Positions 59,070 to 64,000 of a stretch of DNA of 64,000 nucleotides are shown here, in pieces. The notes beneath the pieces were generated by a model. The model did not search any database, had not been told where the DNA came from, and saw only the letters and a program-made list of their open reading frames with translations. Numbering within the stretch: position 1 is the stretch's first letter; every line of letters starts with the position of its first letter. The position numbers and the translations under genes are program-made. The stretch is from Escherichia coli (GTDB taxonomy: Bacteria; Pseudomonadota; Gammaproteobacteria; Enterobacterales; Enterobacteriaceae). The DNA lies in NCBI RefSeq assembly GCF_024502345.1, contig NZ_JALDNN010000001.1. One strand, 5' to 3'.

Positions 59070-59084
59070 TGGTGTCCCCTGCAG
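59070..59084. other. attachment-site core: 15-nt copy of the argW tRNA-Arg 3' end
   Basis: tggtgtcccctgcag is the reverse complement of the 3' terminus of tRNA-Arg(CCU) argW, the KplE1/CPS-53 integration target in K-12; no complete tRNA is present here. Confidence 0.6.
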
Positions 59085-59157
59085 ACATCTACTTGAAGCG
59101 GCAGGGGATTGATTGGAATGGTATTTTTTAGATGTGAGAAATATTTTACCCGCTATT

Positions 59158-59358
59158 TTACCCATTGGCGCGGCTTAAGAGCTTATTTTTGAATTCACAA
59201 TGGTCACGATATAACCATCTTGCTCGCCCGTGGATAACTTTGGCTTTTGGAAGGTCTCCGGACTTAATCCGATCATAGATGAAGGTTTTACCGAAGCCAG
59301 TATCGGCCATGATGAATTTCAAATCAACCAGTGAATCAGGCTGTAGTTCGTGTTGCAT
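59158..59358 (-). CDS. torI: TorI-like excisionase / response-regulator inhibitor
   Basis: 66-aa ORF MQHELQPDSLVDLKFIMADTGFGKTFIYDRIKSGDLPKAKVIHGRARWLYRDHCEFKNKLLSRANG, matching the KplE1 prophage excisionase TorI (AlpA/Xis-type winged helix). Confidence 0.85.
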   Translation of the reverse strand: MQHELQPDSLVDLKFIMADTGFGKTFIYDRIKSGDLPKAKVIHGRARWLYRDHCEFKNKLLSRANG

Positions 59359-59493
59359 GAGTGCTATCTCCGAATAGGGAATCGAACCTGCAAATCAGGC
59401 AATAAAAAACCGCATTGATGCGGCGATGGTAGGTCTGGATATCATTGAGCAATGAACAGGCATCATCGAGTGTGAGGCGGTGTTATTTTATGG

Positions 59494-59838
59494 TTAGTCC
59501 TTGCGTAGCTCTCTGATTCTTCTGTAAGTCTCTGGTGCTTTGTTTCCGTGTATCTTCATTTCCGACTTCAACAGAGCAACTAGGGAATCCCATTCGTTGA
59601 GGATTCCTTTGAATGCCGGAACGCGCTTTGCAACCTTGTCGAATGAATCTCTGATTTCTGGAATCTGCTCAACAAGCGCAACGCATCGTTGGAAATCGTC
59701 TGCGTCATGGGGAGCGCCGAAGTGATGACCATAGATATTCTTTTTCAGGCCACATGCGATTGAGGCAAGAGTTGCGCTACTGATGCCGACATCGCCAGTT
59801 GATTGCCATTTCAAAACCTTCATAGCCAAATCTGACAT
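59494..59838 (-). CDS. hypothetical prophage protein
   Basis: 114-aa ORF co-oriented with the leftward early genes; no recognisable motif. Confidence 0.5.
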   Translation of the reverse strand: MSDLAMKVLKWQSTGDVGISSATLASIACGLKKNIYGHHFGAPHDADDFQRCVALVEQIPEIRDSFDKVAKRVPAFKGILNEWDSLVALLKSEMKIHGNKAPETYRRIRELRKD

Positions 59839-59938
59839 TTCTTGTCTCCATAAAACAAAACTCGCCGTAGCGAGTTCAGATAAAAGAAATCCCCGCGAGT
59901 GCGAGGATTGTTATTCACCTTTTACGGCAAGTTGCAGG

Positions 59939-60232
59939 TTAGCCACGGTTAACCTCCTGAGGCGGTTCTGGTAGCGGCATCCAGTGGGTTACTTTCGATG
60001 CCGGTTCTTCCCCATCGTCAGTAACTGCCCACCATTTGTTTCTCGACCAATCGTAATACCCTTCGAAGGTATCGCACTCAGTCCAGCCGTAAGACTTACC
60101 CCAACACCAAACATACTGTTTATCGTTCGGCATTCGCTCACTACAGCTTATCCAACCAGCGTTTGTTTCGTTAGCGTCCTTAGTGTGTTCATCTGGTTTA
60201 TATGAGCGAAGCATTTCGCTTAGCGTAATCAT
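59939..60232 (-). CDS. DUF551-like prophage protein, first gene downstream of pL/nutL
   Basis: 97-aa W/Y-rich ORF ending …KVTHWMPLPEPPQ, typical of DUF551 phage proteins; occupies the position of N but has no arginine-rich motif. Confidence 0.6.
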   Translation of the reverse strand: MITLSEMLRSYKPDEHTKDANETNAGWISCSERMPNDKQYVWCWGKSYGWTECDTFEGYYDWSRNKWWAVTDDGEEPASKVTHWMPLPEPPQEVNRG

Positions 60233-60295
60233 TGCAAAGCGCCTCCGCCGAGAAGGTTAGCTTCTGCATTCACCCCAAAGTTCACTTTGGTTATT

Positions 60296-60310
60296 GCGCT
60301 TTGTCAGCGC
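60296..60310 (-). promoter_or_regulatory. nutL boxB-like hairpin, P22-type (loop GACAA)
   Basis: Minus-strand gcgctgacaaagcgc: 5-bp GC stem with GACAA loop, located in the pL leader. Confidence 0.5.
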
Positions 60311-60380
60311 CGTAGATTCATATTTGAATCGTTGTATATTCACCGCCCTGGTGAGTAGTGCGTCCTGCTGATGTGTTTAG

Positions 60381-60441
60381 TATCACCGCCAGTGGTATTT
60401 ATGTCAACACCGCTAGAGATAATTCATCACCGCAGATGGTT
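60381..60441. promoter_or_regulatory. lambda-type left operator oL1-oL2-oL3 with pL
   Basis: tatcaccgccagtggta, caacaccgctagagata, catcaccgcagatggtt: three 17-bp CI operator repeats almost identical to lambda OL1-3 by recall. Confidence 0.8.
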
Positions 60442-60589
60442 ATCTGTATGTTTTTTATATGAATTTATTTTTTGCAGTGGTGCATTGTTTGGTAGGTGAG
60501 AGATCTGAACTGCTATGTTTAGTGAGTTGTATCTATTTATTTTCAAATAGATACAATTGGTTATGTGTTCTTGGGTGAGGGGGATCGTG

Positions 60590-62132: not shown

Positions 62133-62142
62133 GCATTAAATC

Positions 62143-62206
62143 TATCACCGCAAGGGATAAACTTCTAACACCGTGCGTGTTGACTATTTTACCTCTAGCG
62201 GTGATA
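62143..62206. promoter_or_regulatory. lambda-type right operator oR3-oR2-oR1 with pRM/pR
   Basis: tatcaccgcaagggata (OR3), taacaccgtgcgtgttg (OR2), tacctctagcggtgata (OR1, one change from lambda) between divergent cI and cro. Confidence 0.88.
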
Positions 62207-62232
62207 ATGGTTGCCTGTACTAAGGAGGTTGT

Positions 62233-62433
62233 ATGGAACAACGCATAACCCTGAAAGATTATGCAATACGCTTTGGGCAAACCAAGACGGCTAAAGATCT
62301 CGGCGTATATCAAAGCGCGATTAACAAGGCCATTCATGCAGGCCGAAAGATTTTTTTAACTATAAACGCTGATGGAAGCGTTTATGCGGAAGAAATAAAG
62401 CCCTTCCCAAGTAACAAAAAAACAACTGCATAA
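62233..62433 (+). CDS. cro: lambda-type Cro repressor
   Basis: 66-aa translation [66 protein letters not shown], two substitutions from recalled lambda Cro; RBS taaggaggttgtATG. Confidence 0.93.
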
Positions 62434-62440
62434 GTAACAC

Positions 62441-62486
62441 CGCTCTTTTCACAATGGACATTCGTCCTACGTCGCTGACAAAGCGA
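62441..62486 (+). promoter_or_regulatory. nutR-like site: boxA-like cgctcttt plus P22-type boxB hairpin
   Basis: cgctcttttcac… then tcgctgacaaagcga (5-bp stem, GACAA loop), unlike the lambda boxB gccctgaaaaagggc. Confidence 0.5.
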
Positions 62487-62570
62487 GCCCCAAGATATCT
62501 GACCAACTAAGGCCATATGCGTTTCCACGCATACCTTTCAACTAACTATTCACTATTGGAAAATTAACAA

Positions 62571-62867
62571 ATGACACAAGCAAGTTATAGCAAGCCAACA
62601 CAGCGAGAAATTGATCGCGCTGAAACTGATTTACTCATCAACCTGTCAACGCTTACCCAGCGCGGTCTGGCAAAGATGATTGGCTGTCATGAATCGAAGA
62701 TAAGCAGAACGGACTGGAGATTTATTGCTTCGGTCTTGTGTGCTTTCGGAATGGCATCAGACATCAGTCCGATTAGCAGGGCTTTTAAGTATGCATTGGA
62801 TGGAATCACAAAGAAAAAATCCCCGGCTGCCACCGAGGATTCTGAGCAAATTGATATGCAATTCTGA
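62571..62867 (+). CDS. cII: CII-like transcriptional activator (divergent from lambda CII)
   Basis: 98-aa ORF in the cII position; C-terminus KKSPAATEDSEQIDMQF parallels lambda CII KKRPAATERSEQIQMEF, the rest is divergent. Confidence 0.6.
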   Translation: MTQASYSKPTQREIDRAETDLLINLSTLTQRGLAKMIGCHESKISRTDWRFIASVLCAFGMASDISPISRAFKYALDGITKKKSPAATEDSEQIDMQF

Positions 62868-62888
62868 GGGAATTACTGGATCAATCCA

Positions 62889-63062
62889 CAGGAGTAATTA
62901 TGACAAAACGTCGTAAGAAATACCAGGAAAAAGAAGAGATTCGACACCCTGATTCACCTGAGGGATTAGTGGTAGCCGCAGCAAATAACAGGGCGTTCGC
63001 AGAGCGCCTTGTTGGTGTTTACAGACTAGCCAAAGCAGGAGTGAAACATGGGCGTCGTTAAG
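62889..63062 (+). CDS. hypothetical small basic protein (58 aa)
   Basis: ORF MTKRRKKYQEKEEIRHPDSPEGL… with RBS acaggagtaattATG; stop overlaps the start of the next ORF. Below the ORF-track cutoff. Confidence 0.35.
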
Positions 63063-64000
63063 TTAGCTGATTACAGGCCTCAACTGGAGGTCGTGGAGCA
63101 TCGCGTGGCAGATACCGAAGATGGTTTCATGCGCGTTGCTAACGAGATTACTCAATATCCAGACCAGATTGAATCCGTTCGTAAAGGCATGGGATTCATT
63201 GATGAAGACCAGCGTAATTCTATCGGCACCTTAGCGGCTGGCGCACGCCTTGCGTCATCGTCTCCAGAAGCAATGCAATCATGGCTGCAAAACAACGCCG
63301 GTGAGTTAGCTCGTGTTGGCGTTAATCCTCATGACGTCGCTCAGATGTACCAACAGAACCCGCGGCAGTTCGTCGAATTTGTCGATCACCTGGGGATGAA
63401 CAGTCTCGGGCCCGAAAAATACTTTGACCTACAGGATAAAATGCAGGGTCGCCAGGTTACCATGCGCGGTCAGGATCTGGATTCGCAAACCGCCGCTCGG
63501 AATCAGGCAATCACAATGCGCGGACAAGATATCCAGGCGAATTTAGGTCAGCAGCGCATTAATCTGGACGCAGAAACAAACCGCATTAACAACGAAAATA
63601 AGCGCCTTGACCGGATGCTATCAGCAGAAACTAACGACCTGAAGCGCCAGGAAATACAGAGCCGCATAGCAGCCAACAACCAGCAGTTGCAGCAGAAGCA
63701 GCAAGCGCTAAATGATGGCTACAAAGACGGCATCAACACCCTCACAACCAGCATGTTCACTCTGAACGATATCGTTAGTTCTCCTTCACTTAAGAGCATT
63801 ACAGGCTTACGTGGAGTAATCCCCAACGTTCCAGGCTCACAGGCTGCAGACACTCAGGCACGACTTGATACCTTTAAATCACAAGCATACCTGACAGCGG
63901 TTCAGGCCATGCGAGGCATGGGCGCACTTTCTGATGCCGAGGGCAAAAAGCTCGACCAGGCTGTTGGTTCGCTGCAGAACTCGCAGAGCGAGGAGTCCTT
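63048..64000 (+). CDS. hypothetical phage protein, 3' end outside window; Q-rich with internal tandem repeat
   Basis: Frame open from ATG at 63048 (RBS aggagtgaaacATG) to the window end (over 317 codons); contains repeats TMRGQDLDSQ / TMRGQDIQAN; no similarity to lambda O. Confidence 0.5.
   Translation, partial: MGVVKLADYRPQLEVVEHRVADTEDGFMRVANEITQYPDQIESVRKGMGFIDEDQRNSIGTLAAGARLASSSPEAMQSWLQNNAGELARVGVNPHDVAQMYQQNPRQFVEFVDHLGMNSLGPEKYFDLQDKMQGRQVTMRGQDLDSQTAARNQAITMRGQDIQANLGQQRINLDAETNRINNENKRLDRMLSAETNDLKRQEIQSRIAANNQQLQQKQQALNDGYKDGINTLTTSMFTLNDIVSSPSLKSITGLRGVIPNVPGSQAADTQARLDTFKSQAYLTAVQAMRGMGALSDAEGKKLDQAVGSLQNSQSEES

Follow-up and report, generated by a model that had tools for sequence, protein, structure and literature searches.

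We analyzed a 64,000-nucleotide stretch of Escherichia coli DNA (contig NZ_JALDNN010000001.1 of assembly GCF_024502345.1), which we call the window. Its last 4.9 kb (59070-64000) is very probably the attR-proximal part of a cryptic, deleted, mosaic P22-like prophage that is inserted at argW. The entire element measures about 10.06 kb from core to core, as read with the help of near-identical contigs. It has lost about three quarters of its genome by internal deletions, and it retains a lambda-type repressor switch and the excision genes. An earlier note on this DNA had described a defective, deleted, mosaic prophage with an intact repressor module. That description is backed by two deletion junctions that we mapped within the window and by the complete element in the contigs, and all of the features that the note listed are present where it had placed them. 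The element is an ordinary cryptic lambdoid/P22-like prophage remnant of a well-known kind, and it is mechanistically unsurprising.

Boundaries of the element

The prophage begins at a short copy of the 3' end of argW:

59070-59084 (no strand): attR core, a 15-nt copy of the 3' end of argW (TGGTGTCCCCTGCAG), and the left boundary of the prophage

This sequence, read in reverse complement, makes up the final 15 nt of argW, and it has a single match in the 64-kb window (0 are expected by chance). As published, the core of the K-12 prophage KplE1 has 16 nt (CTGCAGGGGACACCAT; PMC2951348); the attR core covers 15 of these 16 nt, and the exact repeat in this element is 15 nt. The chromosomal flank (evgS ... 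dsdA, cscRAKB) is common to thousands of E. coli genomes, and similarity to it stops at 59084. Similarity to argW prophages that lie beside a different flank (dsdC) starts exactly at 59070. Because flank homology ends and prophage homology begins at this site, 59070-59084 is the true boundary of the element, and the proposed att core from the 3' end of argW holds up.

A tRNA scan found no tRNA gene in the prophage region, nor anywhere in 50-64 kb of the window, so the assignment to argW rests on the 15-nt core and on the relatives of the element. Past the window, at the far end of the element, argW is intact, and attL lies inside argW in a near-identical contig (L004). Thus, the duplicated core from the 3' end of argW bounds the element on both sides, with attR in the window and attL in L004. 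A permissive Rfam search of 58500-64000 returned zero matches.

Two deletion scars in the window

The odd gene order of this prophage is fully explained by two mapped deletion scars together with the known KplE1-type layout. The scars are:

59939-60232 (- strand): left scar, a 97-aa fusion open reading frame (ORF) directly after pL and nutL, with matches to PF04448 and to PHROG families of the DUF551 type
63048-64000 (+ strand): right scar, a fusion of O to an ejection protein, 381 aa in full, which runs 195 nt past the end of the window

The left scar is the DUF551 gene that had been noted directly after pL and nutL, in the place of N. Its first four codons (ATG ATT ACG CTA) are those of a small leader ORF that precedes N in HK97-type phages. 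At 60220/60221, the reading frame passes from the leader into a DUF551 gene, of which the C-terminal part is left. We therefore rejected the idea that it is a normal short DUF551 gene, since the leader of N supplies both the start (four codons) and the ribosome-binding region. In strain 81 and in HK97, the ATG that is equivalent to 60232 opens a short leader that runs into N (as seen in an alignment with strain 81). Homology to the pL-nutL/imm region of HK97-type prophages ends at 60221, and homology to DUF551 DNA ends near 60158. A tblastn search of the window and of the complete element found no homologue of N (best E = 0.17): where a cognate N would be expected as the first gene of the pL operon, the leader is cut after four codons. 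That the leader of N runs into a DUF551 fragment indicates that N was deleted rather than mismatched. The left deletion took N and the early-left operon down to the ea region.

The right scar is an ORF in the position of replication gene O, for which the earlier note had no identification. Codons 1-34 are from an HK97-type O, and they continue in frame into codon 97 onward of a P22 gp20-type DNA-ejection protein. The PHROG matches are O-like on amino acids 1-36 and to phrog_2534 on amino acids 34-317 (profile positions 98-385 of 435); the latter is a family of P22 gp20-type "released upon infection" ejection proteins. A three-way nucleotide alignment places the junction at 63149-63151, with 3 bp of microhomology (TAC). 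Identity to the O gene of HK97 extends through 63151, and identity to a full-length gene for the 443-aa ejection protein (from strain CM2010-0578/1) begins at 63149. The full fusion ORF was read in two of the near-identical contigs (L005 and L006).

Because O is fused to the ejection protein, the genes for replication, nin, Q, lysis, packaging, and the head are gone. On the map of P22, about 19.5 kb is missing, namely the remainder of O together with P, nin, Q, lysis, terminase, portal, scaffold, capsid, head completion, needle, and the gene for the first ejection protein. The complete element lacks what an inducible prophage would have, namely O and P with the origin, Q, lysis genes, terminase, portal, and capsid.

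The rest of the element in near-identical contigs

An exact look-up of the 97-aa protein, which spans the left junction, identified 20 contigs, from two NCBI assemblies, a Logan SRA assembly, and several ENA metagenomes. Two of these contigs (L005 and L008) are 100% identical to the window up to 64000, and three others (L003, L004, and L006) are at least 99.98% identical. The gene order in the contigs is yfdC, argW, intS, tailspike (PF09008), mnt-like, orf161, transglycosylase (SLT) fragment, fusion gene, orf53, cII, cro, cI, KilA-N, DUF551, orf114, torI, and cscB. In the 100% identical contigs, argW is reached only 5.1 kb past 64000, with no replication, lysis, or head genes in between. The parts of the element that lie past the window are:

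past the window: end of the fusion gene (its last 64 codons)
past the window: transglycosylase-domain ejection protein, a 151-aa N-terminal fragment (the intact protein has 797 aa; 436 of 2394 nt are kept)
past the window: orf161, a 161-aa ORF
past the window: mnt/arc-like gene
past the window: tailspike with a P22 head-binding domain, 696 aa (PF09008)
past the window, L004 1266-2423: intS, beside attL and argW, 382/385 identical to IntS of K-12

As in P22-like phages, there is a tailspike with a head-binding domain, along with ejection proteins of the gp20 and gp16 types and an mnt/arc-like gene between them (PF09008, PF16928, phrog_2534, and phrog_21143). Except for the gp20 fragment, these features lie past the window, and the ejection genes are truncated. 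By these similarities, the virion genes are P22/Sf6-like, as in a podovirus, and not lambda-like. On this point, the description of the prophage as lambdoid needs correction.

The remnant recurs in draft genomes and in gut or environmental assemblies. Among 5,426 complete RefSeq E. coli genomes and 50,697 phage records, none covers at least 80% of the region or spans either junction.

One contig (L003, from GCA_050022275.1) has an extra, nested deletion of 571 bp, with a 9-bp overlap, at 6360-6368 of that contig, which corresponds to just past 63873 of the window. It takes the 3' end of the fusion gene and most of the transglycosylase fragment. This extra deletion implies that the remnant is still decaying, in a stepwise manner.

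The immunity region

The lambda-type switch consists of:

60407-60379 (- strand): promoter pL (TTGACA-17-GATACT)
60381-60397, 60405-60421, and 60425-60441 (- strand): operators oL1, oL2, and oL3 (with pL, the region 60379-60441)
60602-60619 (- strand): intrinsic terminator at the end of the cI-bstA transcription unit
61419-62132 (- strand): cI repressor, intact, 237 aa, of the lambda immunity type
62143-62159, 62166-62182, and 62190-62206 (+ strand): operators oR3, oR2, and oR1 (region 62143-62208)
62180-62208 (+ strand): promoter pR (TTGACT-17-GATAAT)
62233-62433 (+ strand): cro, 66 aa (PF09048)

The oL, cI, oR, and cro of lambda had all been claimed for this region, and the comparison agrees. 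The repressor is identical to that of lambda at 233 of 237 positions, to that of HK97 at 235 of 237, and at all 237 to its counterparts in strains 1008S19 and E272, which have fuller prophages. It keeps the A-G cleavage site and the Ser/Lys catalytic pair. Cro is 64/66 identical to lambda Cro. Three of the operators (oR3, oR2, and oL1) are identical to those of lambda, and the other three (oR1, oL2, and oL3) are each one base off. The change in oR1 (G to A) is shared with HK97, and two changes in the spacer between oR3 and oR2 are shared with strains 1008S19 and E272. The promoters pR and pL, with their lambda hexamers, are the only two sigma-70-type matches in the 5 kb that we scanned. The element therefore has what defines the lambda immunity group: a near-identical cI and Cro, and tripartite oL and oR, built of 17-bp lambda operators, that overlap pL, pR, and pRM. 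Judging from sequence, the cI gene, cro, the operators, pR, and pL are intact.

An HK97-type early region

The nut sites and the genes between cro and the right scar are:

60296-60310 (- strand): nutL boxB (GCGCUGACAAAGCGC), a 5-bp stem with a GACAA loop, the same as in P22 and HK97 nutL; fold computed
62441-62486 (+ strand): nutR, with a boxA-like sequence (CGCTCTTTT) at 62441-62449 and boxB (UCGCUGACAAAGCGA) at 62472-62486; fold computed
62571-62867 (+ strand): cII, HK97-type, 98 aa (phrog_191)
62900-63061 (+ strand): orf53, a homologue of HK97 gp53 (53/53 identical)

Both boxB hairpins have a 5-bp stem and a GACAA loop, and the 11-mer that they share was found exactly twice (0.03 expected). 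These pentaloop hairpins lie downstream of pL and pR, as in P22 and HK97, and match nutL of P22 and both nutL and nutR of HK97. The region between cro and cII, which includes nutR, is identical to that of HK97.

The earlier note had taken GACAA-type hairpins beside lambda immunity as the mark of an odd recombinant, with hairpins that would need an absent P22-type antiterminator. The combination is there, but it is not odd, because HK97 has the same nutL boxB, an identical cro-cII region, and an N with a gp24-like C-terminus: this is the normal HK97 arrangement. Likewise, the hairpins are present and N is absent, but deletion of N accounts for its absence and there was no mismatch. We also rejected the idea of a hybrid between lambda and P22, as the early region is of the HK97 type throughout.

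The cII gene, which had been noted as divergent, is identical to that of HK97 at 95 of 98 positions; in a global alignment to lambda cII, just 36 positions are identical across 102 columns. An oop-like terminator hairpin with a run of T's lies antisense to the 3' end of cII (62816-62843, - strand), in the position of the oop terminator of lambda and P22. It had no match to an Rfam family.

A bstA-like pseudogene beside cI

The slot that rexAB occupies in lambda holds a putative defense gene:

60628-61387 (- strand): bstA-like pseudogene (KilA-N and BstA_C), with matches to phrog_6287 (BstA) on both halves and recognized by PADLOC as BstA

An intact BstA would be a single ORF with a KilA-N domain and a BstA C-terminal domain. 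Here, both domains are recognizable, and the ORF is broken by two lesions. Aligned to the intact 253-aa gene of strain ML35, it has a nonsense mutation at codon 114 (GAA to TAA, at 61046-61048) and a 2-bp deletion, which causes a frameshift, at 60755/60756. In the records of strains 81 and 1008S19, the 113-aa N-terminal fragment with the KilA-N domain has the same accession (WP_227164514.1). Because the same fragment is present in both of those strains, the nonsense mutation is probably older than the large deletions.

The torI end and the recombination module

Between attR and the left scar are:

59158-59358 (- strand): torI, KplE1-type excisionase (recombination directionality factor), transcribed towards attR
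59378-59393 (- strand): 16-nt copy of the argW T-arm (TTGCAGGTTCGATTCC), 20 nt upstream of the start codon of torI
59409-59424 (- strand): terminator-like hairpin in the gap between orf114 and torI
59494-59838 (- strand): orf114, a conserved lambdoid early-left gene (phrog_1229, E = 2.8e-51)
59858-59909 (- strand): two tandem intrinsic terminators in the gap between the DUF551 fusion and orf114 (combined minimum free energy of -25 kcal/mol, z = -6.0)

TorI is identical to its K-12 counterpart at all 66 positions and matches phrog_66 (excisionase), as expected if this is the KplE1-type torI that had been recognized here. There is no integrase between att and torI, as had also been observed, but this is not a sign of decay. 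In the recombination module of KplE1, HK620, Sf6, and CUS-3, intS is at attL and torI is at attR (PMC2951348), and because of this layout the missing integrase beside torI is expected. Our element follows it: torI is by attR, away from the integrase, and intS, with a predicted promoter of its own that overlaps attL, is by attL and argW at the opposite end.

Megablast matches to orf114 cover the ORF114 feature of phage 434 and hypothetical-protein ORFs in HK022, and there are DNA matches in mEp phages as well. The HK022 record X51962 has an annotated "tL4 terminator" inside the stretch that matches the tandem terminators. NCBIfam did not name TorI, Cro, CII, DUF551, orf114, or the fusion protein, and for cI and IntS its only matches, to LexA and to an integrase domain, were below threshold. 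PADLOC recognized BstA alone, and found nothing for orf114, orf161, the DUF551 fusion, or the mnt-like protein.

The T-arm copy is about 290 bp from the att core, and it is also found upstream of torI in K-12 CPS-53, strain 81, and strain 1008S19. In argW itself, the 16 nt of TTGCAGGTTCGATTCC immediately precede the core, so torI looks embedded in an older, longer attP segment that was derived from the tRNA.

Comparison with known prophages and phages

In K-12, the corresponding element is CPS-53/KplE1 (argW-intS ... torI-attR, 10.2 kb). It occupies the same site, shares 15 of 16 nt of the att core, and has intS at attL and torI at attR, with 382/385 identity for IntS and 66/66 for TorI. The torI-attR segments are 93.7% identical over 411 nt, and the yfdC-argW-attL-intS segments are 97.1% identical over 2198 nt. 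CPS-53/KplE1 is likewise a deletion remnant, with a similar residual size of about 10 kb. Its interior, however, is unrelated: it has gtrABS (yfdGHI), tail-fiber fragments, and yfdK-T, with no repressor, whereas our element keeps a complete lambda-immunity switch, a tailspike, an mnt-like gene, and fragments of ejection proteins. KplE1 is missing the CI module and is not SOS-inducible, and the K-12 remnant excises in vivo, in a manner that depends on IntS and TorI (PMC2951348). Because the two elements share their ends but differ in their interiors, our element is an independent sibling of CPS-53/KplE1, the decay product of a related phage rather than the same remnant. It adds one more independent case of prophage decay at the argW hotspot that spared the module of att sites, integrase, and directionality factor, and here the repressor switch as well.

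The early region resembles that of HK97. The first 34 codons of O are identical at the nucleotide level; cI, cII, and gp53 are identical at 235/237, 95/98, and 53/53 positions; and the nutL boxB, the cro-cII region, and the variant of oR1 are the same. The N protein of HK97 has a C-terminus like that of P22 gp24. In contrast to our element, from which N and O/P were deleted, HK97, a siphovirus, is complete and has N, O/P, and late genes. HK97 has gp48/gp49 where our element has the bstA-like pseudogene, and its virion and integration genes are unrelated to ours.

Outside of the early region, the closest phages are Sf6, Sf101, and IME10. They have 93-97% DNA identity to our element across the segments for the ejection protein, the tailspike head-binding domain, mnt, and intS, and these genes are in the same order (gp20, gp16-like, mnt, tailspike, int, att). 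They are complete at 38.7-39.6 kb, whereas our element is without about 28 kb, including all of the replication, lysis, packaging, and head genes. HK620 and CUS-3 are also P22-like phages that integrate at argW, with a conserved KplE1 module layout (PMC2951348).

Among bacterial genomes, the argW prophages of strains 81, ZY22049, and 1008S19 share their site and their torI end with our element, and their lambda-type immunity region is identical to ours or nearly so. The immunity regions of strains 81 and 1008S19 are 99.4-99.7% identical to ours (99.7% for 1008S19) and have the same nonsense allele of bstA. The deletions end at different points: strain 81 has cro joined to a DNA-transfer gene, and in ZY22049, cI is followed by DnaB and then gp4'. 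The argW prophage of 1008S19 is much fuller, with an IS1 after cII.

Proposed origin and decay, and possible activity

We propose that the element descends from a temperate podovirus that was P22-like, of the Sf6/IME10/Sf101 type, and had a genome of about 38-40 kb. This ancestor would have combined a KplE1-type integration module (intS at attL and torI at attR) with an HK97-type early region, made up of cI, cro, and operators of lambda immunity, cII and O of the HK97 type, and N and nut of the P22 type. At least three deletions by illegitimate recombination would then have produced the remnant. One, estimated at 5-7 kb, would extend from the leader upstream of N (four codons in) to the middle of the DUF551 gene and take with it N, cIII, kil, the ea genes, and those for recombination. 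Another, of about 19.5 kb as measured on P22, would start at codon 35 of O and end with codon 96 of the gene for the gp20-type ejection protein. A third, past the window, would have removed about 2 kb of the gene for the transglycosylase ejection protein. The bstA-like defense gene would have been inactivated before the deletions. As a check on the sizes, the 10 kb that is left plus about 19.5, 6, and 2 kb lost gives about 38 kb, and the genomes of Sf101, Sf6, and IME10 are 38.7-39.6 kb.

The element should be unable to replicate, to lyse the cell, or to form particles. Excision is probably still possible, since the att sites, IntS, and TorI are intact and KplE1 of K-12, a remnant of similar size, does excise. 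In the lysogen, cI expressed from pRM would repress pL and pR, and so the host would be immune to phages with lambda/HK97 immunity, including superinfecting lambda. The one practical consequence is that strains that carry the element are predicted to be immune to lambda-immunity phages. After cleavage of cI during the SOS response, pR would give Cro, CII, and gp53 along with a useless fusion protein. Transcripts from pL would allow translation of the DUF551 fusion and, without N, would stop at the tandem terminators (59858-59909), upstream of orf114 and torI. The orphan nut sites could respond to an HK97/P22-type N that is supplied in trans.

It could be that the remnant is not inert debris and is instead maintained as an excision-competent immunity island, with IntS and TorI wired, unlike in K-12 KplE1, to a complete, SOS-sensitive, lambda-type switch. 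We consider this unlikely. If true, such an island could shield its host lineage from phages with lambda/HK97 immunity. Also, cleavage of cI, or N from a co-resident or infecting HK97/P22-type phage, could then allow transcription from pL to read through to torI and lead to excision.

Several points weigh against our account of a cryptic, deleted P22-like prophage. First, the sequence past 64000 comes from other assemblies (L004, L005, L006, and L008), which are 99.98-100% identical to the window across overlaps of 4.4-13 kb. Second, the sizes of the deletions are estimates from relatives, not from the true parent phage. Third, the -35 region of pRM is two bases off from that of lambda; the fuller prophages have the same allele.

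Alternative explanations

Another explanation is that the element is a small mobile element by selected design, such as a phage satellite (similar to a phage-inducible chromosomal island, or PICI) or a domesticated immunity island. It keeps exactly the parts for mobility and immunity (att sites, intS, torI, cI, cro, and operators), both of the deletion fusions are in frame, and it is nearly unchanged across several samples. However, it has no replication initiator, primase, packaging genes, or genes for redirecting capsids, and the ends of the gaps are truncated, ordinary phage genes that are joined with 0-3 bp of homology. Useless fragments are kept (the tailspike, two pieces of ejection proteins, and the bstA pseudogene), and decay is continuing in one strain. 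Two in-frame fusions would arise by chance about 1 in 9 times. Overall, we think that selected design is very unlikely.

It is extremely improbable that misassembly produced the junctions by joining reads from several prophages into chimeras. E. coli genomes do hold several similar lambdoid prophages, which makes them prone to misassembly, and neither junction was found in the complete RefSeq genomes. But the exact 97-aa junction protein is present on all 20 contigs, which are of independent origin. Each of the eight contigs that we examined matches the window at the junctions that it reaches (five reach both junctions, one stops short of the right junction, and two have the left junction only), and the same chromosomal flank is present in all six contigs that extend to it. 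Furthermore, one contig has the nested deletion. Taken together, this pattern is what a real, vertically inherited locus would show.

An intact prophage that continues past the window with N, replication, and late genes in lambdoid order, which the earlier note had named as the opposing scenario, is hardly credible: the window does end inside the element, and the integrase does lie outside, but within the window only 34 codons of O are left before the sequence passes into the middle of an ejection gene, N is absent with its leader fused to a DUF551 fragment, and the contigs that are 100% identical through 64000 show about 5 kb more, ending in intS and argW.

The neighboring chromosome

The csc genes for sucrose utilization (cscR, cscA, cscK, and cscB; about 53300-58629) and a 72-aa fragment of dsdX abut attR; K-12 has dsdC-dsdX there. 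This is the known variable argW-dsdCXA island. In the window, cscB is a full 415-aa ORF, and in strain ZY22049 it has an internal stop.

Farther from attR, a 1057-bp insertion sequence (IS) of the IS5 family (49850-50906) carries 18-bp inverted repeats at its ends (GGCTTTGTTGAATAAATC) and encodes a transposase at 49906-50874 (- strand). It sits between an evgS and an emrY that are both truncated at the 5' end (46376-49795 and 50915-51841). At this site, evgA, emrK, and the first ~200 codons of emrY are missing. Because two near-identical contigs (L003 and L004) keep emrY and emrK, the IS-associated deletion is specific to the strain of the window.

The window also contains two clusters of tRNA genes, at 14366-14763 (Lys-Val-Val-Val, - strand) and at 17463-17653 (Ala-Ala, + strand). 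These are ordinary chromosomal operons that are unrelated to the prophage.

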